52,159 nt of DNA from Candidatus Parcubacteria bacterium (GTDB lineage Bacteria > Patescibacteriota > Minisyncoccia > Phycocordibacterales > UBA2100): the NCBI GenBank assembly GCA_003599175.1, contig QZIY01000020.1:1-52159 (forward strand). Direction: 5' to 3'. The notes under the pieces are model-generated. The model searched no databases. It saw only the letters and a program-made list of their open reading frames with translations, and was not told the DNA's origin. Positions 12,436 through 41,978 of the stretch are shown piece after piece (within the stretch, counting starts at the first letter, position 1; each line of letters begins with the position of its first letter). The position numbers were made by a program, and so were the translations under genes.

Positions 12436-12438
12436 GCT

Positions 12439-14594: not shown

Positions 14595-14630
14595 TTTCTC
14601 AAAGTTGTTAGCCGTGCTATGTTGCGAGAC

Positions 14631-16578: not shown

Positions 16579-16579
16579 T

Positions 16580-24606: not shown

Positions 24607-24728
24607 ATTTTTATTAAAGAGACTACGCCCGAACGGCAGAAAACTCAAGCTGATCAGGAGCATAGTACAAAAATGTTCGCCATAATGGCGAATGGCGGGA
24701 AGGCGTGGGGCACGCTATAGTAGCACCC

Positions 24729-26530: not shown

Positions 26531-26857
26531 ATGGATCTTGCGATGTCACTCGGTTGGCTTGCCACGTTTCTTTTTACAATCTGCTATGTGCCGCAGATTA
26601 TCAAGACTGTGAAAACACAGTCGGTGAGCGGTCTTAGTTTTTGGCTTCTTTTTATACAATTCATCGCCAACATAGTCGCATTTTGTTATGCAACGCTCAT
26701 CGCGCAGCCCCCGCTTCAAATCAAGTATATACTCGCGCTCTTTTTTCTTCTGATATGTATGGGCGTATATATTCGTGTGTATCGAAAAAATCCACCGCAG
26801 CGACAAATCTCATCGGCAGAATCGCTTCCCGATGCACCCGATCAAGTGGCCCTCTAA
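26531..26857 (+). CDS. PQ-loop / SemiSWEET-like small transporter
   Basis: YVPQIIKT...SGLS motif with three hydrophobic helices. Confidence 0.8.
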   Translation: MDLAMSLGWLATFLFTICYVPQIIKTVKTQSVSGLSFWLLFIQFIANIVAFCYATLIAQPPLQIKYILALFFLLICMGVYIRVYRKNPPQRQISSAESLPDAPDQVAL

Positions 26858-27390
26858 ATCAGTTTCTTCGCTCGCATTTCAGTCCAGAGCTTTTCGATAC
26901 TTTTATGCACGCTTGTTTCAGCCGAAATTCTGATATCTGGTCGCTCCGGTCGCTCGTACGGGCGATTGTCGCTCATACCGATGATCTCCATCTCACCCCT
27001 TTTCCCTTTTGCGTACAATCCCTTCACGTCGCGCTCGATACAAATGGAAAGCGGTGTATCTACAAAAACTTCAATATATTGATCACCTAAAAGAGCTCTC
27101 GAGTTTGCGCGATCTTCCGCATAAGGTGAAATCGCTGAAACAAGCACGAAATCATTGTCCGCGCTTTGTTTGAGTGCAAGTTCTGCGAGAAGGCGATTAT
27201 TCTTGCGTATATCGTCGCGCGAGAATCCGAGCGGTGTTGCATGTTTTTCACGGACATCATCGCCGTCGACGAGGCTAACGATTTTACGCGACGCTTCCAG
27301 TCGCGTTTTGAGCGCGCGGGCGAGCGTGGTTTTACCTGAACCAGACAGACCAGTGAACCACAAGATCCGACTCATAGTTTTATTCGACAA
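26854..27390 (-). CDS. cysC: Adenylyl-sulfate kinase
   Basis: WFTGLSGSGKTT, DGDDVR, ISPY, RDVKGLY, YERP. Confidence 0.92.
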   Translation of the reverse strand: MSNKTMSRILWFTGLSGSGKTTLARALKTRLEASRKIVSLVDGDDVREKHATPLGFSRDDIRKNNRLLAELALKQSADNDFVLVSAISPYAEDRANSRALLGDQYIEVFVDTPLSICIERDVKGLYAKGKRGEMEIIGMSDNRPYERPERPDIRISAETSVHKSIEKLWTEMRAKKLI

Positions 27391-29638
27391 ATACTTTTTT
27401 GCCGCGCTTGATCATGTCGATGATTGCTGAGGAAATTTCCGGACGCATAAACCATGCAGGTGGTTTTTTACCTGCAAGAAGCATCGCACGTACTTGTGTG
27501 CCACTGATGTTCAGTTTTTCGCTTTCTTTGTGTCTTAATCGCTGTTCGCCTTCGTGAATATGTTTTTTTTCCTTGGACGAATAAAATACTTGATTGAAAC
27601 GCACTGGAGATATATTGAGGTCGGGAAAACGATCGAAAATTTCGTGCGCTGCTGCCGGAGGATAGAACGACCCGATACCTGTATGATCTCGTCCGACGAT
27701 AAAATGACTGCAGCCGAAATTTTGACGGCACAGAGCAGTAAAAAGTGCTTCGCGCGGACCAGCGTAGCGTGAATAACTCGCGAAGGTCCCGAGTATAGCG
27801 CGTCCTTTGGGGTAGAATTGTTCACTCATGAGTGCATACGCAGCGATGATGGCCTCGGCCTCAAAATCACCTTTTTTCTTTTTGCCAATAACAGGATGAA
27901 TAAAAAGTCCATCTGCCGAAGAACGGCGAAGCGCTTCGAGCTGAATAAATTCGTGCCCACGATGAATTGCGTTCCTCGTGTGAAATGCAACGATCCGTGA
28001 CCATCCTCGTTCTGCAAATAAGCGTCGTGTCTGCCGCGGCGTGAGCTCGTATTTTTTGGTCGGCGAATCATATCGTCTGTAGAGTGTCACCGTGCCGCCT
28101 AAAAAGACAGGCCTCATCGCCAGTACCATGGCGACACCCGGGTGTGAGGGGTCAGTTGTCCCGTACACATGCTGCGCGAAATCTTTTTTATCGTACGCAT
28201 ATTTTTCTTTCAGATGGAGCACGGCTACAACGGTTCCTTTCTTGTTTTTGAGCGCGATATCAGATCCTTCTGTAAGACGCGCCGCTTCTTCGGTACTGAC
28301 ATCAAGTACAATCGGCATCGGCCATATGGCACCGCTTGGCATCCGCATATGCTTGAGCACAGAATCCAATTCTTTGTGCGTAAGAAAACCTTCGAGCGGA
28401 CTGAAGGTGCCGATGGCGATTTGCTCAATATCCATATGCTGTTCATCGGTAATCTGTATCGATTGCAATTTCCCATCGGGGGTGAGACCAAATGCAGCTT
28501 GCCGATCCACAAGCGTGCCACCATTAGGGGGAATGAGCATCTCGCCCGGATTACTGGTATGCAGATAGTTTGCCTTGTCGAGTGTGACGACGTATCGAGG
28601 ACGTGGTCGCGCATCTTCTGGCACGCTCTCTGCTTGATGAATCAATTTATTCAGCGTGTTAACCACCTCAATCGGATAGTCGCCGATCGCTGTTTCCGCT
28701 GCAAGTGTAACGCCGAAGGCGCCATCGAGGATCGTCTGCACCGTGTCATGTACCTCGGCGCGCGTAGGACTTTGTTTATGTACCATTGACTCAAGAAAAT
28801 TCGTCGCGACGAAGACTCCCTTGTTTTTTTTGCGCGCTCGGTCGATGATGATTTTTTGCGCAAAGGGGATTTTCTCGATCGGTACCTCGCGGCTCAAATC
28901 GCCGCGGTCGATCAGAAGGTAGTCAGATTTTTCTATGATCGCATCGAGTTGCTCGAGTGCTTCTGTGCACTCGATCTTCGAAATGATTTTCATGCGGCTC
29001 TTTGTCCGCTTTCGCACGAGATCCACTGCTTCTGGCGATCGCACGAACGAAACAGCAATGTGATCGACGCCTTCTTTGAGCGCTATTGCGATCGCATCTT
29101 CGTCTTTTGGTGAGAGTGTCGGAAGTTCAAAATTTTTTTTGGATGCCGTGTCGATGACAACACCTTTGTTGGCTCCCATGATGCCACCGGATAGTACCGT
29201 TGATACCACATACCCCTTCTGTGCGAGCATCGAAGTCTCGGTCACGCGCAGGACTACAGAATTGAAATCGATATATACGAGATCACCTTCAGCCAACTGT
29301 GGTACGATGGATTCAGGTTTGAGACAGATGCGTGTACTGTTGCCCCGAATCTGCTTTTGATAAATTTTGATCCTCGCGCCTTCCTCTAAGCGGATCTCGC
29401 CTCGTTCGTTTGCCCCGTTGCGCACCTGCGACCCTTCAGTATCCAATATGAAAGGTATGCCTACGTCGCGCGCAAGTTTCATAAAATAACCCTGATCTGC
29501 AATGCTTGAGTGCGACATATTGACACGCACGAAACCGACGCCCCGGTCTTTGAGCGCACGTAGATGATCTTTGGTATGAGTCGATGGCCCCAGCGTCACC
29601 ACGATCTTGGTTTTCTTGGGAGTCGGTCTGATTTTCAT
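27380..29638 (-). CDS. Pyruvate kinase catalytic domain fused to sulfate adenylyltransferase (Sat)
   Basis: N-terminal PK motifs KTKIVVTLGP, RVNMSH, DTEG, SKIE, RGDL, PTRAE, ETAIGDYP. C-terminal Sat motifs FSPLEGF, FHTRNAIHRGHE, RYAGPREA, IVGRDH, ISGTQVR. Confidence 0.9.
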   Translation of the reverse strand: MKIRPTPKKTKIVVTLGPSTHTKDHLRALKDRGVGFVRVNMSHSSIADQGYFMKLARDVGIPFILDTEGSQVRNGANERGEIRLEEGARIKIYQKQIRGNSTRICLKPESIVPQLAEGDLVYIDFNSVVLRVTETSMLAQKGYVVSTVLSGGIMGANKGVVIDTASKKNFELPTLSPKDEDAIAIALKEGVDHIAVSFVRSPEAVDLVRKRTKSRMKIISKIECTEALEQLDAIIEKSDYLLIDRGDLSREVPIEKIPFAQKIIIDRARKKNKGVFVATNFLESMVHKQSPTRAEVHDTVQTILDGAFGVTLAAETAIGDYPIEVVNTLNKLIHQAESVPEDARPRPRYVVTLDKANYLHTSNPGEMLIPPNGGTLVDRQAAFGLTPDGKLQSIQITDEQHMDIEQIAIGTFSPLEGFLTHKELDSVLKHMRMPSGAIWPMPIVLDVSTEEAARLTEGSDIALKNKKGTVVAVLHLKEKYAYDKKDFAQHVYGTTDPSHPGVAMVLAMRPVFLGGTVTLYRRYDSPTKKYELTPRQTRRLFAERGWSRIVAFHTRNAIHRGHEFIQLEALRRSSADGLFIHPVIGKKKKGDFEAEAIIAAYALMSEQFYPKGRAILGTFASYSRYAGPREALFTALCRQNFGCSHFIVGRDHTGIGSFYPPAAAHEIFDRFPDLNISPVRFNQVFYSSKEKKHIHEGEQRLRHKESEKLNISGTQVRAMLLAGKKPPAWFMRPEISSAIIDMIKRGKKVFVE

Positions 29639-29730
29639 ACGAGATGCATGAAGGGGAGGTTTTTGTCCCGGACATCGAGGAATATACTATTATTGGAGAC
29701 ACGCGTCTACGGTATGATACAGTCCCGTGT

Positions 29731-30585
29731 ATGCGCCGCCTCATTTTTTTTCACCTTGCGAAAACGGGAGGAATCACCCTGCGACGTATCGCTGAGCGCC
29801 ACCTTCCCGAGGGTTACGCGTTCTACAATCTCTCGCTCAATCAAGCCGACAGCAAGGAGCTTGAGGAATTTCGAGCGCTACCCGAAACTAAAAAAGAGAA
29901 GATTGCCGTCCTTGCAGGCCACATGCCTTTTGGCATGGATAAAGAGTTGAGCGGGCCGTCAGATTACATCACGATGCTCCGAAACCCGCTCGACATCGTC
30001 GTATCGGAGTATTATTACCTGCACAACAGTCCGCTTAAAGATTGGCACCGCGCGATCGCGGATTTCAAGGCGATGAGTCTCGGTGATTTCGCACGGAGCG
30101 GATTCAATATAACGACGAACCATCAGACGCGCGTTCTTGCCAGAATATGGTCCACTTTTTTGGAACGATCCGTTCCCGTCGATGAAGCGGCATTTTCACG
30201 GGCGAAAGAATCCCTTCGGCGTGACTTTCTCTGCGTTGGCATCACGGAGCGTTTCGACGAGTCGCTCTTGGTCATGAAAAGGCGGCTCGGGTGGCGTAGT
30301 ATTTATTATTTTAGAGAAAACAAAACGCCGGGACGCAGGCCAACTAAAAGTATCGCACCGGGAGATCGTGATGCTATTCTTGAGCGCAATCATATTGACC
30401 TTGCACTATGGAAGTTTGCGAATGAGCTTTTGGATAAGGAAATCGAAGATTATGGGCCAAATTTTATGCGTGATTTGCGCCATTTTCAGCGGCGTAATTT
30501 TTGGTACCAGAAAGCGCGTCGTGTCGCCCTCTTGGCACGTGGTTTGATGTTCCGCCTTAAGAAACTTACGCACCTGCATGCTTGA
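29731..30585 (+). CDS. Sulfotransferase (Sulfotransfer_2-like)
   Basis: FFHLAKTGG (5'-PSB) and LRNP..VVSEY (3'-PB), plus GITERFDESL. Divergent from the sat/cysC operon. Confidence 0.85.
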   Translation: MRRLIFFHLAKTGGITLRRIAERHLPEGYAFYNLSLNQADSKELEEFRALPETKKEKIAVLAGHMPFGMDKELSGPSDYITMLRNPLDIVVSEYYYLHNSPLKDWHRAIADFKAMSLGDFARSGFNITTNHQTRVLARIWSTFLERSVPVDEAAFSRAKESLRRDFLCVGITERFDESLLVMKRRLGWRSIYYFRENKTPGRRPTKSIAPGDRDAILERNHIDLALWKFANELLDKEIEDYGPNFMRDLRHFQRRNFWYQKARRVALLARGLMFRLKKLTHLHA

Positions 30586-31300
30586 AGCATCACTCTGGGG
30601 CTTGCGCTATGTGAGGATGATCACTGAAACACCCGGCGTTTCGTCGATGGAGCGGCTGAAGCGGCGCTATGCATTCATTCACATTGTCTCGTTCACTCCC
30701 TCCTCTTTGCCGGGATTTTCCGAAACGGTAAAAAAGACGCCTCTCATTCGGCTCGATCGTCCCATTGAGGATATATTTGCCGCGTTCAATGACACGACTC
30801 GTAATGAAATTCGACGTACGGAAAAGATGCCAGAGCTCTCATTCGTGCACGGTGAACGTCATAGAGGAGATGCGTATTCGCTCTATCGAGCGTTTGAGCA
30901 TGCTCAGGGTCGCACGCCCAAACCAAAAAACGAAATCACCAGGAGTCTTCTGTTCACTGCATATTGGAAGGAAGAGTTGATTGCGACGGCGATTTGTTTT
31001 GAAGACGGTGGTTGGGTTCGTCTCTCGCATCTTGCGTCGCGTCGGCTCACGAATACTAAAGAATACTCGCATGCCATCATTGCGTATGCGTCGCGACGCT
31101 TGATGTACGAGATTTGCCGTTGGGGCAAGCAGCACGAGAAGCATTCATTCGATCTTGGCATCATCAACCTCTCCGATCCGTCGAAAAAGGGAATTGCGCA
31201 ATTCAAACAGTCCTTTGGCGGTCTGATCGTCGATACGTACATCTATCGCTGGAAGAGTCCGTTATTTCGCTTTGTGACGAGGTTGTGGTATCTCGATTAG
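30578..31300 (+). CDS. FemAB/GNAT-fold protein
   Basis: TRNEIRR, FDLG and GIAQFKQSFGG resemble FemABX-like motifs. Confidence 0.65.
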   Translation: MLEASLWGLRYVRMITETPGVSSMERLKRRYAFIHIVSFTPSSLPGFSETVKKTPLIRLDRPIEDIFAAFNDTTRNEIRRTEKMPELSFVHGERHRGDAYSLYRAFEHAQGRTPKPKNEITRSLLFTAYWKEELIATAICFEDGGWVRLSHLASRRLTNTKEYSHAIIAYASRRLMYEICRWGKQHEKHSFDLGIINLSDPSKKGIAQFKQSFGGLIVDTYIYRWKSPLFRFVTRLWYLD

Positions 31301-31303
31301 CAT

Positions 31304-32665
31304 ATGAACATTTGCCTTTTCGGACACAGCTGGCATACGCTCACGCCTTACGAACCGCTGGTTAATCTTCTACGCGATCGTGGAATCACCTTTGAGATGC
31401 TCGTGTTGGCACCGCCCACGAGCGCATATTTTCAATCGCTCGAGGAATTTCAAAGACGTTTTCCGCAATTATCGGGATGGGAAAGAGGCGTATACTCGAC
31501 GCGCATCTTCGCGGTAATTCTCCGGATTCCTCTCATTGGTCCGCTCTTTGCCGCACTCCTGTTTCTTTTCATTGTGAGACGACGGTTTGCGCAGGCAAGA
31601 TACGATTGCATTGTCGTAAGCGGAGATCGCGGACTTTTTATCAACGTTATCTTGATCCGCGCCGCGAAGGCCGCAGGTGTCCCGGTTCTTTTGTACCCAC
31701 AAGAAGCATTTCAATCACATGATATGGACGCAAAGATTAAATCTGGAGCCGTCGCTCGTGCGACTGTGATGCGCACATTCGTGCGTCGTCTCACAACTGC
31801 GCTCTATAGTGCGAATTTCTCTCTCGTTGAGGGAGCGCCTTCATACAACTACGTGCCGAGCTATCTTTTGCCATTTGCGCTGTGGAATCGTATTGATACG
31901 CTCTTGCCGATTGATCCCTTCGTCCGCGGGACCAACCCAAACCTCTCAGCGGTGGCGGTCAATTCATCGGATCAAGGCGAAGAAATCAGACGAACACTCG
32001 GAGAGAACAACCGCTTTTTTGTAACTGGTTTCCCGGCATTTGATGCGGTAATGAAGCAACTTCGGATGCGCGATCAGACCCGGACCGATCTTCTGCACAT
32101 TCGCCCCAATCAGCGCGTGCTTCTTATCATTGGCACGCACCTGACCGAAAATTATGCTCCCCATGAATTTCCCGCCGCGTATCAGGAGATCGCTCGTATC
32201 TTTCGCCTACTGGTTGACGAATTACCGTCGGACGTGCTCATTGTGTACAAAAAACACCCACATCGCGAGATTCTCCAAGATATTCTCGCAATCGATCCAG
32301 CGTTGTCTGAGCGGATGCGCATTATTGGACGCGAGGCAGATACGTATCAGCTTGTTGGAGCCGCCGATGCAATCTTTATGTTTGCTTCCTCGGTTATTGG
32401 GTCTGCCATCGCAACAGATGCTCGCATCTGGCTCTATCATCTACCCAACCTGCGCGGGTTCGATGAATTTTATCACCCTTATCATTCACCGCCGCGACTC
32501 AACACTCGTGACGAACTACACAAGGTTTTGCCGCACTTTTTTGATCCACTATCGGAGGAGGAGAAAAAAGGGCGTGATATTGATCGTAGACATAACGGCA
32601 TTTATGATGGTCGCAATACCGAACGCATCTACGAGGCGATCTGTACAGTTGCTCGCACGTCATGA
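31304..32665 (+). CDS. Putative GT-B fold transferase (CDP-glycerol phosphotransferase/capsule-synthesis-like)
   Basis: VTGFPAFD, KKHPHRE, FASSV, DGRNTERI. Confidence 0.55.
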   Translation: MNICLFGHSWHTLTPYEPLVNLLRDRGITFEMLVLAPPTSAYFQSLEEFQRRFPQLSGWERGVYSTRIFAVILRIPLIGPLFAALLFLFIVRRRFAQARYDCIVVSGDRGLFINVILIRAAKAAGVPVLLYPQEAFQSHDMDAKIKSGAVARATVMRTFVRRLTTALYSANFSLVEGAPSYNYVPSYLLPFALWNRIDTLLPIDPFVRGTNPNLSAVAVNSSDQGEEIRRTLGENNRFFVTGFPAFDAVMKQLRMRDQTRTDLLHIRPNQRVLLIIGTHLTENYAPHEFPAAYQEIARIFRLLVDELPSDVLIVYKKHPHREILQDILAIDPALSERMRIIGREADTYQLVGAADAIFMFASSVIGSAIATDARIWLYHLPNLRGFDEFYHPYHSPPRLNTRDELHKVLPHFFDPLSEEEKKGRDIDRRHNGIYDGRNTERIYEAICTVARTS

Positions 32666-34032
32666 AAACCATCCTTTTCAATATTGACGAAGGCACCATG
32701 TCATACGCGCTTCTGCGCACGGGTTTTTTGAAGCGGATGGAGCGGGAGTCAACGATACGGCTCGTCGCGGTCGTACCTTCAAACAAGCTTGATTATTATC
32801 GCGAATCGTTCCGCACGATTCGCAATATCGAATTCACGACCGTGCCGTCGAATAGCTATCAAACAGTTGAAATTTTTTGGGACAATCTGTTTCGTCAAAA
32901 CATTCCAACGCGCACCAAGTCAAATCACCAGTGGCACTCATTTTATACGAACGGGAGTCTGATCTTTCGAAGCGTTCGACTCGTGGGAGTACGAACTTTG
33001 TGGCTCCTGGGACATCTATCGCTCTGGCGGCGTTTCTTGCGCTTTCTCTACGGTTTTACGCCGCATCGCGCATTTGACGCGGTGTTCGACAAGTACAAAC
33101 CGGATCTCCTTTTTGCCACTACCATGTACAGCATGAGAGACCTTGGCCTTATGAAAGCGGCTCGTGCGCATGGCGTCGCGATCGTCGGCATGGTCAAAAC
33201 ATGGGATAGTATTACGACGAAGTTTTTCATGCCGATCGCACCCGATTACATGATCGCCCATAATGAAATCATCAAGTCAGAAGCGGTGAAGTATCTTGAT
33301 TTTCCGGCCAGCAAAATTTTCGTGAGCGGTATTCCGCGGTTCGATTTTTATTTCAATGCAGACATCATACGGCGGCGCGCAGATTTTCTCGCGCAGCTCG
33401 GCTTACAATCCGATGACAAATATATCCTTTTCGCGGGAGACGCGCTGCATCAATATCCGGATCAATGCGAATTCATTGATTTTCTGGATCACACTATTAC
33501 AAAGGATCATTTTTTTGATGGATATACCATTCTGTACCGGCCGCATCCGCATTACGGCAAATGCGAAGGTGGCAGGGCGCGCTGGAAACGTGTCAAAGAG
33601 CAGCAACCCGCGACACGGGTAACAGAGGGGAGAGCTGCATGGGAGTTTGAAGAAAGCGACATCGCACTCATCAACAACACCATCTATCATGCCGCGGCTA
33701 TCTTGATGTTTGCCTCTACGATTGGTATCGAGACGGCACTCTATGATCGGCCCACGATTGGCGTTGCTTTTGATATGACGCCCGAACCAAACTATTATCT
33801 TTCCAATCGCCGCTACTATGACAGCGATCATTATCAAATACTCGACAAAAGCGGTGGCATTCCGCGCGCGCAGAGTCGCGAAGAAGTGATTGCGCTCCTC
33901 AAGGAAGCGATCGCGGAACCACACAAATACGCGGCGGGTAGAAAGCTGATCGTCGACAAAATGCTCGGATTCACCGACGGTCATTCCGCGGAGCGCATCG
34001 CACAGTTTCTCATTGACAAACTGAATCAGTAA
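32662..34032 (+). CDS. Putative GT-B fold transferase (CDP-glycerol phosphotransferase-like)
   Basis: TWDSITTK, SGIPRFD, YRPHP, ASTIGIE, DGHSAERI. Confidence 0.6.
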   Translation: MKTILFNIDEGTMSYALLRTGFLKRMERESTIRLVAVVPSNKLDYYRESFRTIRNIEFTTVPSNSYQTVEIFWDNLFRQNIPTRTKSNHQWHSFYTNGSLIFRSVRLVGVRTLWLLGHLSLWRRFLRFLYGFTPHRAFDAVFDKYKPDLLFATTMYSMRDLGLMKAARAHGVAIVGMVKTWDSITTKFFMPIAPDYMIAHNEIIKSEAVKYLDFPASKIFVSGIPRFDFYFNADIIRRRADFLAQLGLQSDDKYILFAGDALHQYPDQCEFIDFLDHTITKDHFFDGYTILYRPHPHYGKCEGGRARWKRVKEQQPATRVTEGRAAWEFEESDIALINNTIYHAAAILMFASTIGIETALYDRPTIGVAFDMTPEPNYYLSNRRYYDSDHYQILDKSGGIPRAQSREEVIALLKEAIAEPHKYAAGRKLIVDKMLGFTDGHSAERIAQFLIDKLNQ

Positions 34033-34033
34033 T

Positions 34034-35005
34034 ATGCTCACGATCGTCATGTACCATTATGTGCGCGACATTGCAGGGTCACCGTATCCAGGTATTAGAG
34101 GGCGTACGCTCGGGGAATTCGACGGCCAACTTGAATATCTTTCTCGACATTACGTGCATGTGAGCTTGCAAGATGTGATGGATGCGGCAGGAGGAAGAAT
34201 GACGCTACCCGAGAACGCTTATCACCTGACATTTGATGACGGCCTTTCGGATCACTATCGGAACGTATTTCCGCGCCTTCGCGAGCGCGGCATTCCCGCA
34301 TCCTTCTATCCGCCCACCCAAAGCGCACTTAATTCAGTGGTCCTCGAAGTGCACAAAATCCAATTTTTACTTTCAGTCATCACCGATTATGGCGCGCTTG
34401 CGAATGAAATTTTTTCCATGGCTGCTGCTTACCGTTCAGAGTATGAATTTCCCTCTGAAGCAGGACTCCGTGCTCAGTTTGTCAACATCAGGAGTCGCTT
34501 TGATCCGCCCGAAGTCGTGTTGGTCAAGCGGCTGCTACAGACCGGTTTGCCCGGTCCAGTTCGCACTGGAGTCATCGGAGAGCTCTTCGCGCTTCATGTC
34601 ACAACCGATGAAGCTGCGTTTGCGCACGAACTCTATATGACAATGGAGGATATGCGGGAGATGTACAAGTCGGGCATGGAATTTGGAGGACATGGATATC
34701 GGCACGCACGAATGCATGGTATGAAACTCGACGAGCAGGAATTCGAGATCAAAAAAAGTCGGGAATTGATGCGTATGTTGCACGGCAGGGAGCAGCCGTG
34801 GGTGATGAACTACCCGTTTGGCAGTTACGACGAGGAAACAGTGCGGCTCGCGCAAAAATACCACGCGATTCTCGGACTCACGACCAAGGCAGAGCTGGTG
34901 CACGGTTTCGATCGTCCGCTCGAGCTTGAACGGCTCGATACGAATGACTTGCCGCTCTCCGGCGATGCGCCGATTTCAAGATGGACGGCGCAGGTGTTGG
35001 TGTGA
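34034..35005 (+). CDS. Polysaccharide deacetylase
   Basis: MYHYVR, LTFDDG, GGHGYRH, YPFG. Confidence 0.88.
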   Translation: MLTIVMYHYVRDIAGSPYPGIRGRTLGEFDGQLEYLSRHYVHVSLQDVMDAAGGRMTLPENAYHLTFDDGLSDHYRNVFPRLRERGIPASFYPPTQSALNSVVLEVHKIQFLLSVITDYGALANEIFSMAAAYRSEYEFPSEAGLRAQFVNIRSRFDPPEVVLVKRLLQTGLPGPVRTGVIGELFALHVTTDEAAFAHELYMTMEDMREMYKSGMEFGGHGYRHARMHGMKLDEQEFEIKKSRELMRMLHGREQPWVMNYPFGSYDEETVRLAQKYHAILGLTTKAELVHGFDRPLELERLDTNDLPLSGDAPISRWTAQVLV

Positions 35006-35017
35006 AATACTGATTAT

Positions 35018-35719
35018 ATGAACATCATTGCGCTCATCCTCGCCCGCGGCGGCAGCAAGCGGTTTCCGGGGAAAAATCTATACCCGCTGCTCGGAAAGCC
35101 CCTGATTGCACATTCTATCATCGCTGCGAAAGCGACGACGAAGATCGATCGGGTGATCGTCTCGACCGACAGCGAGGAAATTGCCGCGGTGGCGCGGGAA
35201 TATACCGCGGAAGTCCCATTCATGCGCCCCTCGGAACTTGCGAGCGATTCCGCAAAGGCGATTGACGTCGTGCGTCACATCATCGGGATGCTCGAACAAG
35301 ACGGTTATAAGGCCGGTTACGTTGTCACATTACAGCCAACAACACCCGTAATCGAACCGGCGCAGATCGATGCGGCGATCGAGCTTGCGATCGAGAAAAA
35401 TGCAGAGTCTGTCGTGAACGTATCGGAAATAGATACCATCAATCACCCGTACAACATCCGCGAAATTCGAGAGGATGGCACCGCGCATTTCTGGCAAGAA
35501 AAATTGCATTACGAGGCGCTCGGCAAAGATAGACCGAAGTTTTATCACGCTGCCAATCTGTGGCTATCGAGTTACGACACGGTGATGAAAGAGGGGAAAT
35601 TTGAAGGAGAAAAAAATTATCCCATCATCGTGCCGCCGATTTATTCGAGCGATATCGATTTTAAGGAAGATCTGGAACGACTTGAAGCCATCCTTTCCAG
35701 CTGGAAGAAAAACGGCTAG
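35018..35719 (+). CDS. neuA: Acylneuraminate cytidylyltransferase (CMP-nonulosonate synthetase)
   Basis: ARGGSKRFPGKN, VSTDS, RPSELASD, LQPTTP, DIDF. Confidence 0.92.
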   Translation: MNIIALILARGGSKRFPGKNLYPLLGKPLIAHSIIAAKATTKIDRVIVSTDSEEIAAVAREYTAEVPFMRPSELASDSAKAIDVVRHIIGMLEQDGYKAGYVVTLQPTTPVIEPAQIDAAIELAIEKNAESVVNVSEIDTINHPYNIREIREDGTAHFWQEKLHYEALGKDRPKFYHAANLWLSSYDTVMKEGKFEGEKNYPIIVPPIYSSDIDFKEDLERLEAILSSWKKNG

Positions 35720-35729
35720 TATCCAGACA

Positions 35730-36878
35730 ATGGCAGATAAGCGGACGATTGCGGTACTCACGGGGAAGCGCGGCGGATTCGGCGCGATGATTACGATGGT
35801 CGAAGCGCTGAAACGTGATCCAAAAATCAGCGTTGAGCCGATTACTACCGACATGCACCTGAACCCTTTTTTTGGTGATACGGTCAAGGAAGTTGAGAGA
35901 TCATATGGCCCGACCCATCGCGTACCGACCGATCAAAAAGACGACACGAGTGAAGAGCGAGCACAGACACTTGCGCGCACCATGGCGGGCATGGTCGATA
36001 TACTCTCGAAAATTAAACCTGATGTTTTGGTGACGTTGGGGGATCGCGGCGAAGTTTTGGCGGCAGCAAACGCCGCGCTCGAACTCAATATTCCAGTCGC
36101 CCACATCCTTGGAGGCGATACTGCAGGAAACCGAGATGGCGTACGTATCCATGCCATCACCAAACTTGCGCATTTGCATTTTCCAGCCAACAAAGACGCA
36201 TACAAACGCATCTTGAAATTAGGCGAAGAGAAATGGCGCGTCTTCGACTTTGGCTCTACCTATATCGATCTTGCGGTGCAGAAAAAGTTTACGCCGAATA
36301 CAGAAGTGCGGCGGAAGTACAACATCAAACCAGATGAGCCGTACCTTCTCTGCATTCAGCATCCGACGACGCTCGACGAAACCCGCTCATATGACGAAGC
36401 AAAGACGGTATACGAGGGGCTGAAGCGCACGGGTATGCGTACGATCATTGTCTGGCCATGCAGTGATCAAGGGTATTCACTCGTCCTCAAGGCACTCGAT
36501 GAGTATAAAAATGTGCCGCAATTCAGTATTCACAAAAATATCGAAGTACAGGATTTTTGGGGACTCATGGATGGTGCCTCTGCGATGGTAGGGAATTCTT
36601 CGAGCGGTCTCATGGAAACACCATACTTCAATCTGCCGTCCGTAACGGTCGGACACCGGCAAGACGGTCGAGCGCGAGACACCAATGGTATTGTGGTAGC
36701 TGAGCCGACGCCTGAAAAGGTCGAGAAGGCCGTTCTGAGAGCGATCTCACCCGCATTTAAGAAAAAGGTAAAAAATCATTTCGTCTTTGGCAAAGGAAAT
36801 GCGGGAGAGAAGATTGCTCATGTTCTCAAAACTATTCCACTGGGTGAAAAATTACTTCGCAAAAAAATAACGTTCTAA
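35730..36878 (+). CDS. neuC: UDP-N-acetylglucosamine 2-epimerase (hydrolysing)
   Basis: LGDRGE, HAITKLAHLHF, GNSSSG, GHRQDGR. Confidence 0.9.
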   Translation: MADKRTIAVLTGKRGGFGAMITMVEALKRDPKISVEPITTDMHLNPFFGDTVKEVERSYGPTHRVPTDQKDDTSEERAQTLARTMAGMVDILSKIKPDVLVTLGDRGEVLAAANAALELNIPVAHILGGDTAGNRDGVRIHAITKLAHLHFPANKDAYKRILKLGEEKWRVFDFGSTYIDLAVQKKFTPNTEVRRKYNIKPDEPYLLCIQHPTTLDETRSYDEAKTVYEGLKRTGMRTIIVWPCSDQGYSLVLKALDEYKNVPQFSIHKNIEVQDFWGLMDGASAMVGNSSSGLMETPYFNLPSVTVGHRQDGRARDTNGIVVAEPTPEKVEKAVLRAISPAFKKKVKNHFVFGKGNAGEKIAHVLKTIPLGEKLLRKKITF

Positions 36879-36883
36879 AGATT

Positions 36884-37810
36884 ATGAAAGTTTTAGTCAC
36901 TGGAGGCGCAGGATTTATCGGGTCGCATGTCGTCGACAAGCTCCTTTCGGATGGACACTCGGTTGCCGTCGTCGATGATTTTTCGTCGGGCAATGAGCTG
37001 AATGTCCGCAAAGGCGTGACGTATCACCGCACCAATCTCAATGATCCGAAACTTGCGGACGTGCTGAGAGAGGAAAAACCGGAAGCGATTTGTCATTTGG
37101 CGGCAAAGACCAATATGCGCGAATCGCTCGACGATCCATTTTCGGATATCGAAGGCAATGTGCGCGGACTCGTGGCGCTTCTCGAACTGGCTACTAAAAA
37201 GTACCCGATCAAAAAGTTTGTCTTTTCCTGCACCGGCGGCGCACTCTATGGTGATCCGGAGTATGTGCCGGTCGATGAAAACCATCCCACACGCCCTACT
37301 TCGCCTTACGGCATCTCCAAACTCTCCGGAGAAAAGTATCTCTATTATTACAACGCCGTGCACAATCTTCCGAGCATCTCTCTTCGCTACAGTAATGTGT
37401 ACGGACCGCGCAATGAACGCAAAAAACACAACGGCGCTGTCACGGTGTTCATCCAGCGAGTCCTCAAGGGAGAGCCAATCAAGATCAACGGCAGTGGTGA
37501 GCAAACGCGCGACTTTATCTTCGTCGAAGATGTTGCCCGTGCAAATGCGGCAGCTGTATCCGCAGATATCAAAGGTGCTGATGTGTGCAATATAAGCGGC
37601 GGCTCCGAGACGAGCGTGAATAGCATGATCGAGATCATCGAAAAACACGCAGGCAAAAAAGCGCAGGTCGAGCATGCGCCCGAAATCAAAGGCGAAATCA
37701 TGCGAAGTTTCATGTCGAATCAGAAAGCAAAGGATGTATTGGGGTGGTCGCCGAGCGCGAGTGTGGACGACGGTATCAAAAAGACTGTCGAGTACTTCGT
37801 AACGCTATAA
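36884..37810 (+). CDS. NAD-dependent epimerase (GalE-like)
   Basis: TGGAGFIGSH, SPYGISK, LRYSNVYGPR, QTRDFIFV. Confidence 0.9.
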   Translation: MKVLVTGGAGFIGSHVVDKLLSDGHSVAVVDDFSSGNELNVRKGVTYHRTNLNDPKLADVLREEKPEAICHLAAKTNMRESLDDPFSDIEGNVRGLVALLELATKKYPIKKFVFSCTGGALYGDPEYVPVDENHPTRPTSPYGISKLSGEKYLYYYNAVHNLPSISLRYSNVYGPRNERKKHNGAVTVFIQRVLKGEPIKINGSGEQTRDFIFVEDVARANAAAVSADIKGADVCNISGGSETSVNSMIEIIEKHAGKKAQVEHAPEIKGEIMRSFMSNQKAKDVLGWSPSASVDDGIKKTVEYFVTL

Positions 37811-37818
37811 CAAAGAGA

Positions 37819-37845
37819 AAGAGGATCGGCAGAGCCGATCCTCTT
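37819..37845. terminator. Hairpin between convergent genes (probable bidirectional terminator)
   Basis: Perfect 12-bp stem aagaggatcggc-aga-gccgatcctctt. Confidence 0.75.
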
Positions 37846-37864
37846 ATGAAATGAACTGATTTTG

Positions 37865-38908
37865 TTATTGGTGCGCAATCTGCTCCATCACGTCGGCCAT
37901 CGTTGCTACGGCGTACCCAGGGCGAGGTTGGGCATCGCCGTATATAAGACGCTGTCGCGTAAGCATCATAAGACGCTCGTTCGTCTCCTTGAGATAACGC
38001 AGTATCTCGATCCTGAGATATTGCGGATCATCGGAGGCGACAAGCGCGGCAAGGCCTTGCTCGATCGGCTCCCATGCTTTGTCTCCAATCAATACCTGCT
38101 TTCGCTCCTGCAGGACCGACGGCCAGAACTCGATATTTGGTATCCTACGGATCGCTGCGCCGATCCCGAGTTCAGAGAGGAAACTGACCACAAGGTCAGC
38201 CCCGATCAGAAGCTGTGGCCCAGACAGCTCATTGCGTGTGATCAGGCGAGCAGTTATATGCGGTATGCTGTTCAACTGCTCGATGAGTCGATCATATGTT
38301 TCATCTCCGTCATCACCCGGATGACGCGACAGCACGAAATAGAATTTCCGATCAGGCAGTCCGATGAGCGCGGATCCGAGACCGCCCCAGAGCGCGATGT
38401 TTTGCTGGGGGAATTTCGTACCGGGACTCACGATCAATGTCTGTGCGCCGACGCCGAGCTCCGCACGAACCGTCTCGCGGTCTTTTTCGGGAAAATAGTA
38501 CATTTCGTGCATTGGGTTTCCGCTTACAAAGATGCGTACACTTTCTTTGTATAATCGCGCCGCGCCTTTTTTATCGGACGGCCCTATCACCGCGAGGGCA
38601 TCGATATCTCGCATCGAGTCATCTTCATGTGGCCGATGGTATACGAGATGCGTGTCAGCGTATCGCATGATCGGCACGTTGTACCGATGTGCCGCGCTGA
38701 TAGCCATACGCTCGATCCTGCCGCCGATGTCTGGGTCGGTCGCGAAGCCGCTCCAGAGTACGTGCGCGCTTTGAACCTCTTGTCCGACGTCGCGCTCGGA
38801 TGCGCGCATCAAGAGCGTACCTTCGTGTTTGCGCAGCATGAGCTCTCCCAGCAGTTTTTGGGCTGCGTTTACGGCTGCGGGATCACCGCATGCGAGCACT
38901 ACTTTCAT
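37865..38908 (-). CDS. Hypothetical protein with probable GT-B fold
   Basis: 347-aa ORF with AGGAG RBS. DPAAV, VSGNP, SRHPGD and GADLVV resemble the GT-B/epimerase superfamily. Confidence 0.6.
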   Translation of the reverse strand: MKVVLACGDPAAVNAAQKLLGELMLRKHEGTLLMRASERDVGQEVQSAHVLWSGFATDPDIGGRIERMAISAAHRYNVPIMRYADTHLVYHRPHEDDSMRDIDALAVIGPSDKKGAARLYKESVRIFVSGNPMHEMYYFPEKDRETVRAELGVGAQTLIVSPGTKFPQQNIALWGGLGSALIGLPDRKFYFVLSRHPGDDGDETYDRLIEQLNSIPHITARLITRNELSGPQLLIGADLVVSFLSELGIGAAIRRIPNIEFWPSVLQERKQVLIGDKAWEPIEQGLAALVASDDPQYLRIEILRYLKETNERLMMLTRQRLIYGDAQPRPGYAVATMADVMEQIAHQ

Positions 38909-39038
38909 CTGCCTCTCCTATCAGGCAGGGAACTCAACTCAATATTTTATACAACATTTTGTATGAAAATCAAATTTTCAGCAAATTACATCATGAACAT
39001 TTGATGATTGAGAAAACGTTTGATACATTTATGTCTCT

Positions 39039-39719
39039 ATGACCCCTGACGAAAAAGCAGACATCTCACGTGCACTCATCAAACTCACGCTCGAACGATA
39101 CCCGCGCGTATTCCTCGCATGCTCTTTCGGCAAAGACTCTCGCGTCTTGGTGGATCTTGCGACCTCGGTGAAGCCCGATGTCGAGATTTGCGGCATCGAT
39201 ACAGGATACGAATTCAAAGAGACGCTGGAATTTGCCAATGAACTCATCGAAAAGCGCAACCTCAATTTCAAATGGCTTCGCCCCACGCCCGAAGATGTGA
39301 AGCGTATCGATGAATACTATGGCGACAGCTTCATCAAAGACGATCAGTACAAATGCTGCGAGATGAAAATTCCAGCGATCAATAATGTCATCGGCGGATA
39401 CGATGCGTGGATCACAGGTCTCCGACGCGATGAGACGGAATTCCGCAAAAACACGGGCCTTATTGAGCAGGGCAAGATCGTGAAGGTGAATCCCATTGCA
39501 TTTTGGAATCACGATGATATCTGGACCTACATCAAAGACCACAAGCTTGAATATCACCCACTCTACGACAAAGGTTATCCGTCACTCGGCTGCGAGCCGT
39601 GCACAAAGGAGGGGAAGAACCAGAGTGGGGGCGGGCGACAGGGTAAATTCGAGCGCGCGGGCCGCTTCACTGGTACCGGCAATCAGGGACAAGAGTGCGG
39701 TTTGCATACCATGGTCTAA
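39039..39719 (+). CDS. cysH: APS/PAPS reductase with [4Fe-4S] cysteine motif
   Basis: SFGKDS, IDTGY, CC..K, WITGLRRD, YPSLGCEPCT, ECGLH. Confidence 0.92.
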   Translation: MTPDEKADISRALIKLTLERYPRVFLACSFGKDSRVLVDLATSVKPDVEICGIDTGYEFKETLEFANELIEKRNLNFKWLRPTPEDVKRIDEYYGDSFIKDDQYKCCEMKIPAINNVIGGYDAWITGLRRDETEFRKNTGLIEQGKIVKVNPIAFWNHDDIWTYIKDHKLEYHPLYDKGYPSLGCEPCTKEGKNQSGGGRQGKFERAGRFTGTGNQGQECGLHTMV

Positions 39720-39737
39720 AGCGGTAGTGTTCAGACC

Positions 39738-40919
39738 ATGGCAATAAAAAGTAAGAAGCTCCGTGTGCTCGTTTTGGGCGGTGATGGCTATCTGGGCTGG
39801 CCGACGGCGATGTATTTTTCCAATCGAGGTCACGAGGTCGCGGTTGTCGACAATTTCAATAAGCGAAAGTGGGAAGCGGAAGTTGATGCGGAGCCATTGA
39901 TGCCCATCCCATCACTTCAGGAGCGCATCCGTATCTGGAAGAAAACAACCGGCAAGAAAATCAAAATGTATGTCGGCGATCTCTGTCATGAGCGTTTTGT
40001 CGCGCGCGTGTTCGATGAGTTCAAGCCCGACACGATCATTCACTTTGGTGAGCAACCCTCAGCACCTTTCTCAATGATCGGCAACGAACGAGCAGTGGAG
40101 ACGCAGGTCAACAATGTTGTCGGCAATTTGAATGTAATCTTTGCGATGAAGCGCTCGACACCGAATGCACATCTTGTGAAGCTCGGCACGATGGGCGAAT
40201 ATGGCACGCCGAATATTGATATCGAAGAAGGATGGCTCGACATTACTCACAAGGGGCGCAGAGATCGTCTTCTCTTTCCCAAAAAGCCGGGGTCCTTCTA
40301 TCATCTCTCGAAAGTCCATGACAGCCACAATCTCGAATTTGCATGCCGCACGTGGGATCTTGCGGTGACCGATCTCAATCAGGGTGTCGTATATGGCATT
40401 GAGACGGAAGAGACAAAGATGGCGCCTGGTCTTCACACCTCATTCCACTACGATGATATTTTCGGTACCGCACTCAACCGCTTTTGTGTACAGGCGGTCG
40501 CTGGCTTGCCGATCACGCCGTATGGCAAAGGTGGACAGAAACGCGGGTTTCTCAACATCGTCGATACGCTCCGCTGCGTCGAGCTCGCAGCGCTCCACCC
40601 GGCGAAAAAGGGCGAGTTTCGCGTCTTCAACCAATTCACTGAAGTTTTTAGCGTCAACGAACTTGCAGAAACGGTGAAAGAGGCGGCGAAGAAAATGAAC
40701 ATCAAGGCGACAGTCAAGCACATCAAAAACCCGCGCAAGGAGCAGGAAGAGCACTACTACAAGCCGGTGCACACCGGCTTGCCTAAGCTCGGTCTCAAAC
40801 CGCACCTCCTCTCCGACGTCTTGGTCGAGAGCATGATCGCCAAAATCATTGAGCACAAAGATCACATTGAGGAAGAAATCATCATGCCGCGCGTGGTGTG
40901 GGAGAAAAAGAAGAACTAA
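39738..40919 (+). CDS. sqdB: UDP-sulfoquinovose synthase
   Basis: GGDGYLGWPTA, EQPSAPFS, KLGTMGEYGTP, PGSFYHLSK, DLNQGVVYG, GTALNRFC, VFNQFTE. Confidence 0.92.
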   Translation: MAIKSKKLRVLVLGGDGYLGWPTAMYFSNRGHEVAVVDNFNKRKWEAEVDAEPLMPIPSLQERIRIWKKTTGKKIKMYVGDLCHERFVARVFDEFKPDTIIHFGEQPSAPFSMIGNERAVETQVNNVVGNLNVIFAMKRSTPNAHLVKLGTMGEYGTPNIDIEEGWLDITHKGRRDRLLFPKKPGSFYHLSKVHDSHNLEFACRTWDLAVTDLNQGVVYGIETEETKMAPGLHTSFHYDDIFGTALNRFCVQAVAGLPITPYGKGGQKRGFLNIVDTLRCVELAALHPAKKGEFRVFNQFTEVFSVNELAETVKEAAKKMNIKATVKHIKNPRKEQEEHYYKPVHTGLPKLGLKPHLLSDVLVESMIAKIIEHKDHIEEEIIMPRVVWEKKKN

Positions 40920-40955: not shown

Positions 40956-41978
40956 ATGAGCAAAAAGGTCTCCTTAAACGGTAGGATGGTGGGCGAAGGC
41001 GAGCCCGTGTACATCATCGCTGAAGGTGGGCTTACGAATTGGGGGCAGCTCGATTTGGCAAAAAAGCAGGCGGATGCCGCTTTGGTGGCGAAATGCGACT
41101 CGGTGAAATATCAGGCACAGACGACCGAAGCACTGGTCTCGAAAGTTGCCTCGCCGTATTGGTACGATCGGCTCAAATATAAAGAGCTACCGCATGATCA
41201 ATTGCGCGAGCTGATGGAGTATTGTAAGGAAATCGGCATCCAAGGATTTATCACGGCGCATACGGAAGTCGATCTCGAATTTCTTGACAAAGATTTAAAT
41301 ATTCCATTTCACAAAATCGGGTCAGGCGAATCACTCAACTTCGAATTTTTGGAAAAAGTTGGTGCGTGCAAAAAACCGGTCATCATGTCGCTCGGACTTC
41401 ATGTATCGATCGACGAAGTCAAAGAATCTGTTGCAGCGCTCGAGCGGGGAGGTACGCGCGACATTGTGCTCATGCATTGCAACACTATCTACCCGACTCC
41501 GTGGGAGATCATGGATCTTTCAATCATTCAAAAATTGAAAGAGACTTTTGATTATCCGATTGGCTATTCGGATCACACACCGGGCTGGCACATTCCTCTC
41601 GCTGCCGTTGCGCTCGGTGCCACTGTGATCGAGAAGCATCTTTCGTTTGACCTCACCGACGAACGCTCATTTGACTCTGCGGTTTCGTGCACACCAGAAA
41701 CCTTGATTACGATGGTGGAACAATTGAGGCAAGTAGATGCGGCAAGATTTGATCGCAAGGGCGAGCGGCCAAACGCTATTTTGAAAGGGCGTGAATGGGC
41801 GCGGCAATCGATCGTGGCGACGACGAACATCGCAAAGGGAACTGAGATCACTCGCGAGATGCTTACGGTAAAGCGACCAGGAACAGGACTCCCGCCGGAA
41901 AAGGTTGCAGACATCGTCGGCAAAACGGCGACGCGAAATATCGGTGAAGACGAATTGATTCTGGAATCTGACTTTTAA
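40956..41978 (+). CDS. neuB: NeuB-family nonulosonic acid synthase with SAF domain
   Basis: KIGSGE, HCNTIYP, GYSDHT, IEKH, ARQSIV, KRPGTG. Atypical AEGGLTNWG in place of AExGxNH. Confidence 0.85.
   Translation: MSKKVSLNGRMVGEGEPVYIIAEGGLTNWGQLDLAKKQADAALVAKCDSVKYQAQTTEALVSKVASPYWYDRLKYKELPHDQLRELMEYCKEIGIQGFITAHTEVDLEFLDKDLNIPFHKIGSGESLNFEFLEKVGACKKPVIMSLGLHVSIDEVKESVAALERGGTRDIVLMHCNTIYPTPWEIMDLSIIQKLKETFDYPIGYSDHTPGWHIPLAAVALGATVIEKHLSFDLTDERSFDSAVSCTPETLITMVEQLRQVDAARFDRKGERPNAILKGREWARQSIVATTNIAKGTEITREMLTVKRPGTGLPPEKVADIVGKTATRNIGEDELILESDF

Follow-up and report, generated by a model that had tools for sequence, protein, structure and literature searches.

We analysed a 52,159-nucleotide stretch of DNA, hereafter the window, that makes up one entire contig (QZIY01000020.1) of the Candidatus Parcubacteria bacterium assembly GCA_003599175.1. 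In it, a gene for a homologue of the UDP-sulfoquinovose synthases SQD1 and SqdB (39738..40919, + strand) follows cysH directly and is surrounded by genes for the synthesis of a nonulosonic acid (NulO), a sialic-acid-like sugar. We prefer to read this as a route by which sulfite enters a sulfonated NulO or the hexose from which it is made. In its boldest form, to which we give a probability of about 0.4, SQD1 homologues with proline in place of SQD1 Arg101 (Pro-type) would be a separate class that sulfonates UDP-GlcNAc at C6. Together with NeuC, a dedicated clade of NeuB and a CMP-transferase they would produce a 9-deoxy-9-sulfo sialic-acid-like sugar, by a cassette that occurs in bacteria of the candidate phyla radiation (CPR), Proteobacteria, Actinomycetota and Nitrospirota. 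In the Kaiserbacterium studied here the polymer would also be O-sulfated from 3′-phosphoadenosine 5′-phosphosulfate (PAPS), with both sulfur donors made through a fusion of pyruvate kinase (PK) and ATP sulfurylase (PK-Sat) that is driven by phosphoenolpyruvate (PEP), in an organism without sulfur assimilation.

Results

The SqdB-like protein and its nonulosonic acid cassette

The SqdB-like protein is an extended short-chain dehydrogenase/reductase (SDR) that aligns without gaps to Arabidopsis SQD1 (1qrr/1i24; 505.6 bits) and keeps the motifs G14-x-x-G-x-x-G20, T151-M-G and Y188-H189-x-x-K192. Its best NCBIfam model is NF041015 (UDP-sulfoquinovose synthase, E 3e-144), at 480.7 bits, which is under the cut-off of 575; no Patescibacteria match reached that cut-off. 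The residue equivalent to SQD1 Arg101 is Pro107. Given this exchange and the missed cut-off, we refrain from calling the protein a genuine UDP-sulfoquinovose synthase. According to passages of two reports, the R101A mutant of Agl3 is inactive (PMC4388408), and the equivalent arginine of diatom SQD1 is listed in the NAD and UDP-sulfoquinovose pockets predicted by COACH (PMC7281551). Excerpts of PMC8987622 and PMC4388408 describe the chemistry of SqdB as a modified 4,6-dehydratase mechanism and report that SQD1 and Agl3 act as 5,6-dehydratases when sulfite is missing. The enzyme very probably works as SQD1 does, in that the sugar is oxidised, undergoes 5,6-dehydration, takes up a nucleophile and is reduced. 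The pathways to legionaminic (Leg) and pseudaminic (Pse) acid also begin with 4,6-dehydratase chemistry, a likeness that we count in favour of the preferred reading. The gene context suggests that UDP-GlcNAc may be the substrate.

That context is a NulO cassette on the + strand. Downstream of the SqdB-like gene lies a NeuB-family NulO synthase (40956..41978; PF03102, 206.8 bits, plus a SAF domain; TIGR03569, 266.6 against a cut-off of 399.65), which stays below the equivalog cut-offs for N-acetylneuraminic acid (Neu5Ac) synthase and PseI. Upstream are a NeuA/PseF-like CMP-NulO cytidylyltransferase (35018..35719; PF02348, 104.9 bits; TIGR03584 PseF, 154.9, under the cut-off of 205.7) and a NeuC-type hydrolysing UDP-N-acetylhexosamine (HexNAc) 2-epimerase (35601..36878; TIGR03568 NeuC_NnaA, 325.8 against 235.9). 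The TIGR03568 match begins at residue 49, and the true start of NeuC probably lies downstream of 35601. A NeuC-type epimerase, a NeuB-type synthase and a CMP-transferase are thus all present, and the cassette contains neither an aminotransferase nor an N-acetyltransferase. Between NeuC and CysH lies a GalE-like SDR epimerase/dehydratase of 308 aa (36884..37810; PF01370, 198.1 bits; GalE, 190 against a cut-off of 262.3; LegB, 141.5 against 475), which is kept at this place in a genome of the same genus (G025) and in locus L010.

The cassette is framed by genes that could transfer and export its product. An ABC exporter with fused membrane and ATPase domains (24705..26477, +; PF00664, PF00005) is the first gene of a conserved ABC-TagF-NulO locus and is colinear in G025, G029, L010 and G459. 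Two TagF/TagB-like transferases follow. TagF1 (31304..32665, +; 453 aa; PF04464, 28.8 bits), a candidate NulO or polyol-phosphate transferase, has counterparts that adjoin the ABC gene in G025, G029 and L010, and TagF2 (32662..34032, +; 456 aa; PF04464, 44 bits) shares 40% identity with the corresponding proteins of G025 and G029. Both contain an H-P-H stretch that is uninformative on a sialyltransferase function, as TagF enzymes use histidines too. TagB-domain proteins of ∼445 aa have been experimentally implicated in the transfer of Pse and Leg in Tannerella forsythia, according to passages of PMC5420450. At the other end of the cassette, downstream of NeuB, a polytopic membrane protein of 487 aa with nine transmembrane-like segments (41988..43451, +) gave no Pfam match and an E-value of 1.4e-6 to the putative glycosyltransferase family LA_3751/2; it is found downstream of NeuB in G025 too, with 40% identity.

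Pro-type SqdB genes are linked to nonulosonic acid genes across phyla

A contig scan with the SqdB-like protein of the window kept 80 loci (55–82% identity) from many phyla, to which we added four loci from relatives, 84 in total. Each was typed by the residue aligned to SQD1 Arg101, and neighbours were scored by tblastn with the window proteins (E ≤ 1e-10, at least 50% query cover, within 7.5 kb). NeuB, NeuC or CMP-transferase genes were found near 23 of the 37 Pro-type loci (all three in 17, two in 3, one in 3) and near none of the 43 Arg-type, the three Ser-type and the single Cys-type loci. All 23 linked loci stem from metagenome-assembled genomes or single-cell assemblies, and they represent Parcubacteria, Saccharibacteria, Alpha- and Betaproteobacteria, Nitrospiraceae, Gaiellaceae and other Actinomycetota, and Pelagibacteraceae; gene order varies among phyla while the linkage between SqdB and NulO genes is retained. 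By this tblastn scoring with the window proteins, no glycosyltransferase was conserved beside SqdB among the surveyed loci.

Some of the unlinked Pro-type loci, including L011, L048 and L055, are cut by contig ends. In others the partners are a DegT aminotransferase with a sugar transferase, a UDP-sugar dehydrogenase with PglF-like and WecA-like proteins, or a PgaC/chitin-synthase-like family 2 glycosyltransferase (GT2) with a deacetylase. These contexts have a HexNAc flavour, yet they indicate that the product can also find use outside a NulO pathway.

Two of these settings deserve a separate remark. In L065, L078, L080 and L035 (Actinomycetes and one betaproteobacterium) the SqdB-like protein has E-I-P instead of E-Q-P, and its gene lies beside those for the PgaC/chitin-synthase-like GT2 and a polysaccharide deacetylase, which suggests a sulfonated exopolysaccharide of the poly-HexNAc type. 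In L015 (Chloroflexota) the genes immediately after a Pro-type SqdB encode a DegT aminotransferase and a Bac_transf sugar transferase, an order that would fit capture of the 4-keto intermediate to give a 4-amino sulfo-sugar.

We built a quick IQ-TREE of SqdB (85 rows) and a tree of NeuB (33 rows), both from sequences of the window and the surveyed loci. The Pro- and Cys-type SqdB proteins form one clade of 39 rows (SH-aLRT 93), sister to a clade of 43 actinomycete Arg/Ser-type rows (SH-aLRT 99), and all 24 NulO-linked rows, the window included, fall within a set of 33 rows (support 97). Since the Pro-type is one clade, the sequences indicate that the change from arginine to proline was one event, and the correlation with NulO genes does not amount to 24 independent observations. 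The columns that separate the clades are, in SQD1 numbering, 36, 39, 40, 47, 101, 215, 229 and 231; SQD1 itself has the residue of the Arg clade at 36, 40, 47, 101, 229 and 231. The NeuB proteins linked to SqdB, that of the window included, form one clade of 21 rows (SH-aLRT 99) apart from second NeuB copies of the same loci. Three NeuB proteins encoded less than 4.5 kb from SqdB fall outside it; two of them are second copies (L018, L061) and the third has a long branch (L063).

CysH and the fate of sulfite

CysH (39039..39719, +) is an iron-sulfur-type APS/PAPS reductase, APS being adenosine 5′-phosphosulfate, and the predicted source of sulfite (PF01507 PAPS_reduct, 149.3 bits; NF002537, 190 against a cut-off of 154). 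Its stop codon at 39719 and the start of the SqdB-like gene at 39738 leave a gap of 18 bp. The protein carries Cys106-Cys107, Cys185-x-x-Cys188 and a C-terminal ECGLH with Cys220. The CC...CxxC and C-terminal ECGLH motifs mark the APS-reductase type, and the protein is predicted to prefer APS; with the APS_reductase model TIGR02055 it scores 158.6 bits, under the cut-off of 235.3. It is the only PAPS_reduct gene in its own genome. Besides the window, six of the 84 surveyed loci have cysH immediately upstream of sqdB (G025, G043, one Parcubacteria locus, two Saccharibacteria loci and one further bacterial locus). All are of CPR type, and CC, CxxC and ECGLH are invariant in the 7/7 copies, that of the window included. 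The arrangement is found in none of the other 78 loci, and in none from Proteobacteria, Actinomycetota or other free-living groups, phyla with an assimilation of their own. G029 and L061 have the cassette without cysH.

The genome (920,917 bp in 40 contigs, 0.15% contamination) is 88.31% complete. In neither the window nor this genome did we find a match to the sulfite reductase family NIR_SIR (PF01077; matched in 11/14 control genomes) or to the PALP family of cysteine synthase (PF00291; 14/14), which is also the answer to the search for cysI, sir and cysK that the sequence-only reading of this DNA had proposed. No route from sulfite to sulfide or cysteine is therefore visible in this genome. 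Since neither a sulfite reductase nor a cysteine synthase turned up, no alternative sink for sulfite is apparent, and the SqdB-like enzyme would be its only plausible consumer.

The sequence-only reading had listed a PK-Sat, cysC, a divergent sulfotransferase, cysH with its CC...CxxC motif 18 bp upstream of sqdB, and no sulfite reductase or cysteine synthase in the window. All five genes are open frames at the positions it gave and match the families named, the spacing and the motif are as described, and the absences extend to the genome. Its proposal that sulfate reduction here serves only to supply sulfite for a sulfo-sugar gains support from these absences, from the single PAPS_reduct gene and from the cysH-sqdB pairs in six further CPR-type loci. 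The host was suspected to be a CPR organism, which is borne out by the closest SqdB-like and Sat homologues being named Candidatus Kaiserbacteria, Parcubacteria or Patescibacteria. Less uniform was the outcome for the thioredoxin and Fe-S assembly genes to be sought: a NifS/IscS-like desulfurase and a TrxR-like reductase (TIGR01292, 257.4 bits against a cut-off of 343.45) are present in the genome, whereas SUFBD and NifU_N were not found there and the thioredoxin-fold match is weak.

The PAPS/sulfotransferase module

A block at 26531–31300, between the ABC gene and TagF1, holds the genes for sulfate activation. PK-Sat (27380..29638, −; 752 aa; NF003166, 429.3 bits against a cut-off of 387), predicted to convert sulfate to APS, consists of a PK barrel (residues 8–326), PUA_2 (388–521) and ATP-sulfurylase (529–740) domains. 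The barrel is fused to the N-terminus of Sat and is without the PK C-terminal domain. Its conserved PK motifs, which we take to be the catalytic ones, align with those of M. tuberculosis PK 5wrp. All of the best 120 protein-database homologues share the PK + PUA_2 + ATP-sulfurylase architecture, 18 of them with APS kinase additionally fused (PK-Sat-CysC), and their sources include Patescibacteria, Nanoarchaeota, Woesearchaeota and Anaerolineae. We found no paper on a PK-ATP sulfurylase fusion in the titles and abstracts searched. The APS kinase CysC (26854..27390, −; PF01583, 149.1 bits; TIGR00455, 159.7 against 138.7), which is predicted to convert APS to PAPS, has a start that overlaps the end of PK-Sat by 11 nt.

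Divergent from PK-Sat is a sulfotransferase of the Gal-3-O-sulfotransferase family (29644..30585, +; PF06990, 40.9 bits against 27). Its stretches K-T-G-G-I-T and R-N-P-x(5)-S resemble PAPS-binding motifs, presumably those known as 5′-PSB and 3′-PB. Sat, APS kinase and sulfotransferase are thus all above their cut-offs, and a candidate for the removal of PAP is present in the form of an Inositol_P/CysQ-like gene elsewhere in the genome (C16:9852-10586; 173.3 bits). The annotated starts of PK-Sat and the sulfotransferase (29638/29644) are only 5 bp apart. The true start of the sulfotransferase is probably a later Met just ahead of the K-T-G-G motif, which would leave room for a promoter.

The block begins with a PQ-loop (SemiSWEET-like) membrane protein (26531..26857, +; 108 aa; PF04193, 51.3 bits; three transmembrane-like segments by hydropathy scan), which has no counterpart between ABC and TagF1 in G025. 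It ends with a FemAB/GNAT-like protein (30578..31300, +; 240 aa) that is a lead only: it gave no Pfam match at E ≤ 0.001 (FemAB, E 0.074), and its Atlas feature and structure neighbours are FemAB/Acetyltransf_6 clusters.

The two sulfur modules occur separately in relatives

In G025 the order is ABC-TagF1-TagF2-CMP-transferase-NeuC-epimerase-CysH-SqdB-NeuB-membrane protein, colinear with the window. In G029 the genes are arranged likewise but CysH is missing, and G043, from another family of the order, has NeuC-CysH-SqdB-CMP-transferase ... NeuB. Compared with G025, the window has three additions: the 26531–31300 block (PQ-loop, CysC, PK-Sat, sulfotransferase, FemAB-like), a polysaccharide deacetylase (34034..35005, +; PF01522, 74.8 bits) and a minus-strand gene for a GT-B-fold transferase-like protein. 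The latter (37865..38908, −; 347 aa) matched no surveyed locus and no Pfam family; it is a lead whose Atlas neighbours have Glyphos_transf, LpxB or MurG folds (TM 0.72–0.82). A + strand open reading frame that overlaps it (37862-38554) has no family match, and by the Atlas model we take the 347-aa minus-strand frame as the gene.

The SqdB family is found in 4/61 relatives' genomes (the one studied here, 2/36 others of the genus and 1/24 in other families of the order) and in 1/400 other genomes sampled across the phylum. ATP sulfurylase is found in 3/60 other genus genomes (G008, G013 and G459), none of which has the SqdB family. In G459 the module likewise lies between ABC and a TagF-like gene, with a sulfotransferase of 41% identity and a PK-Sat of 62% identity that forms a 998-aa open frame together with CysC; in G008 and G013 Sat-CysC lacks the PK part. 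Among the genus genomes sampled, the PAPS/sulfotransferase and cysH-sqdB modules are combined only in the genome studied here, for which a separately mobile PAPS/sulfotransferase module is the best reading. The pathway had been called self-contained. This holds for the conversion of sulfate to APS, PAPS and sulfite, and does not hold for the picture of a single pathway, as the modules are separate in relatives and joined only here. As an observation apart, the Sat-CysC pairs of G013 (L106) and G008 (L107) lie a few kb from NeuB and CMP-transferase genes, so that sulfate activation is tied to NulO loci even without SqdB.

Discussion

A proposed pathway from sulfate to a sulfonated and sulfated glycan

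The families of the genes, their motifs and order, the clades in the trees and the absences across the genome are observed; from them we infer every substrate and product of the following scheme, along with the preference of CysH for APS, what the PK barrel does and what becomes of the NulO. The two sulfur modules would share one APS pool. PK-Sat would form APS from sulfate, with the fused barrel probably regenerating ATP from PEP. One part of the APS would be phosphorylated by CysC to PAPS, from which the Gal3ST-family sulfotransferase would O-sulfate the glycan; another would be reduced to sulfite by the Fe-S-type CysH. The SqdB-like SDR would add this sulfite to the 5,6-ene of a 4-keto UDP-hexose or UDP-HexNAc, giving a C6 sulfonate. 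Because NeuC, a CMP-transferase and a NeuB of the co-inherited clade lie around the SqdB-like gene, we think it most likely that NeuC and NeuB, with PEP, convert the 6-sulfo sugar nucleotide to a 9-deoxy-9-sulfo nonulosonic acid. The CMP-transferase would activate this product, the TagF/TagB-like enzymes may transfer it, and the ABC transporter may export the polymer. We give the whole chain, from sulfate to an exported O-sulfated glycan with sulfonated NulO, roughly even odds.

Alternative explanations

Several points weigh against this interpretation. The arginine replaced by Pro107 is essential in Agl3, so that the Pro-type may differ in chemistry beyond its sugar preference. The association of the Pro-type with NulO genes reflects one historical event plus transfer of the cassette, and 14 of the 37 Pro-type loci have no NulO genes nearby, so that the product there presumably goes straight to glycosyltransferases. 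NeuC, NeuB and the CMP-transferase already make up a complete sialic-acid-type pathway, to which SqdB could add a second, separate residue. We had considered that UDP-glucose might be unavailable, which would have favoured UDP-GlcNAc; this idea was discarded because of a GalU-like gene close to its cut-off (321.8 bits against 326.8), which means that the canonical substrate is probably at hand. SUFBD and NifU_N scaffolds for the CysH cluster and a SulP sulfate transporter were not found in the genome by searches that matched in controls, the sole thioredoxin-fold match is weak (27.7 bits) and lies beside a DsbB-like gene, and the genome is 88% complete. Finally, G025 (94% complete) and G043 (100%) keep cysH-sqdB, and in both ATP sulfurylase was not found, CysD is absent and CysH is the sole PAPS_reduct match, while G029 (98%) has sqdB and no PAPS_reduct gene was found there. 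This pattern implies that the cassette does not require an in-house sulfate route; our guess is that these three organisms scavenge APS, PAPS or sulfite.

The most serious competitor, which we regard as unlikely but far from negligible, is that the enzyme makes ordinary UDP-sulfoquinovose from UDP-glucose and the sulfite of CysH, and that a glycosyltransferase adds sulfoquinovose as a residue of its own beside an unsulfonated sialic-acid-like sugar and O-sulfate esters. The gapless alignment to SQD1 at 505.6 bits with the catalytic T-M-G and Y-H-x-x-K kept, the GalU-like gene, the possible direct use of the product at the 14 unlinked Pro-type loci and the fact that NeuC, NeuB and NeuA need no extra enzyme would all agree with it, and any of the four family 4 glycosyltransferase (GT4) genes in the window could act like SqdX or Agl16. 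Against this, it is the CMP-transferase and NeuB, and no glycosyltransferase, that are conserved beside SqdB; the linked NeuB proteins form a clade of their own under the Neu5Ac-synthase and PseI cut-offs; Arg-type SqdB is linked to NulO genes in 0/43 loci; and the arginine that Agl3 depends on is a proline in a protein that misses the equivalog cut-off. This is the version of the sequence-only reading, which expected plain sulfoquinovose as in the N-glycans of Sulfolobales. As it stands that version is not supported, since STT3/AglB (PF02516) had no match in the genome (controls matched in 4/14, all archaea), Arg101 is absent, the NCBIfam cut-off is missed and a NeuC/NeuB/CMP-transferase cassette accompanies the gene across phyla; the sulfo-sugar may instead be a NulO precursor rather than a sulfoquinovose residue.

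That sulfite is not involved at all seems quite improbable. On this account the Pro-type enzyme would be a plain 4,6-/5,6-dehydratase like Pen or TunA, working towards a 9-deoxy nonulosonic acid, and CysH would serve something else. It draws on the 5,6-dehydratase activity of SQD1 and Agl3 without sulfite described in the passages cited above (PMC8987622, PMC4388408), on the loss in the Pro clade of two arginines of the Arg-type (SQD1 101 and 229) and on G029 and L061, whose cassettes lack cysH; it sits poorly with cysH immediately upstream in seven CPR-type loci, with a genome in which neither sulfite reductase nor cysteine synthase was detected, and with a cassette devoid of the aminotransferase and acetyltransferase that normally follow a 4,6-dehydratase in Leg and Pse routes. 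Slightly less probable still is ordinary assimilatory sulfate reduction, with sulfite reductase and cysteine synthase hidden in the unassembled 12% and cysH next to sqdB by accident. A genome in 40 contigs at 88.31% completeness leaves room for missing genes, but the relatives with cysH-sqdB that are 94–100% complete are also without ATP sulfurylase or CysD, cysH lies exactly upstream of sqdB in six other loci, and Sat, CysC and CysH are placed in a glycan island rather than a cys operon. We keep sulfonation of a NulO precursor by the Pro-type enzyme as the preferred reading.

Other genes of the glycan island

Almost the whole window is glycan island, with a fragment of SecA at the contig end. 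Besides the sulfur and NulO genes it contains GT4 and GT2 transferases, an RmlA/B/D-like set, a Wzy_C/TPR protein and PMT_2 and GtrA proteins. A Pfam rescan of the unnamed open reading frames at E ≤ 1 gave weak hints at most. The region 10469-13434 groups an NDP-hexose C-methyltransferase with an NDP-hexose 2,3-dehydratase and a GFO/IDH/MocA oxidoreductase, a route to a branched deoxysugar of the kind typical of antibiotic sugars, here within a CPR glycan island. A second, separate NulO set at 14619-19672 comprises a DegT aminotransferase, an SDR, a NeuB (TIGR03569, 308.6 bits, under the cut-off), a GNAT protein and a cytidylyltransferase. Between its NeuB and GNAT genes a protein of the MbnB/TglH/ChrH family (DUF692-type; 17404-18180) is unusual company for a sugar pathway. 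A protein of the aminoglycoside 3-N-acetyltransferase family (23794-24663, −; PF02522, 135.9 bits), also inside the island, probably N-acetylates a sugar and does not confer resistance.

Significance and comparison with known systems

In the literature searched we found no paper that links SqdB to nonulosonic acids or to CPR/Patescibacteria, and a 2026 review on sulfoquinovose does not mention Patescibacteria, sialic acid or polysaccharide. The window contributes the union of the two modules within a single island and genome, the absences across the whole genome, the Arg101-to-Pro signature of a clade, the co-inherited clade of NeuB and the relatives that have cysH-sqdB without sulfate activation. 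If the preferred reading is true, the sulfite made by an enzyme of the “cysteine pathway” would serve purely to build a surface sugar, in a bacterium that has given up sulfur assimilation, and the product would belong to an unreported class of C–S-bonded sugars, either a sulfonated nonulosonic acid or a 6-sulfo-HexNAc precursor. With the cassette present in several phyla, organosulfonates in the environment could then have a source that has gone unrecognised, and the sugar could be a new, strongly acidic surface epitope. Pro-type genes are currently annotated as UDP-sulfoquinovose synthase or generic epimerase, and proline for SQD1 Arg101 with its coupled changes could serve as an annotation signature that separates glycan-type from sulfolipid-type SqdB.

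With SQD1, SqdB and Agl3 of S. acidocaldarius the window enzyme shares the SDR fold, the length, the catalytic motifs and the predicted chemistry of 4-oxidation, 5,6-dehydration, sulfite addition and re-reduction. It differs from them in the proline at position 101 and the coupled changes at SQD1 positions 36, 40, 47, 229 and 231, in having NeuC, NeuB and a CMP-transferase as neighbours instead of SqdX/SQD2/SqdD or Agl16, and in its host, which is without thylakoids and in whose genome STT3 was not found. CysH has the PAPS_reduct fold, CC...CxxC and ECGLH in common with the Fe-S APS reductases of plant plastids and of bacteria (type of P. aeruginosa, M. tuberculosis and B. subtilis), but it stands outside any cysteine pathway, joined to the gene of a sugar enzyme, misses the TIGR02055 cut-off and comes from a genome in which no Fe-S scaffold was found. 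The bifunctional Sat-CysC PAPS synthases of the Aquifex type (NF004040) also occur with sulfotransferases, so that Sat, CysC and sulfotransferase form one module in both cases, whereas the Sat of the window carries an N-terminal pyruvate-kinase barrel. The closest parallel to the cassette as a whole is offered by the Leg and Pse pathways (LegB/PseB, LegG/NeuC, LegI/NeuB, LegF/NeuA), where an SDR that modifies a UDP-HexNAc is likewise combined with NeuC, NeuB and a CMP-transferase. In the window, however, this SDR is an SQD1 homologue predicted to add sulfite, not hydride, at C6, and in a cassette without aminotransferase or N-acetyltransferase the predicted product would keep the 7-OH and carry a 9-sulfonate, a sugar of which we found no description in the literature searched.

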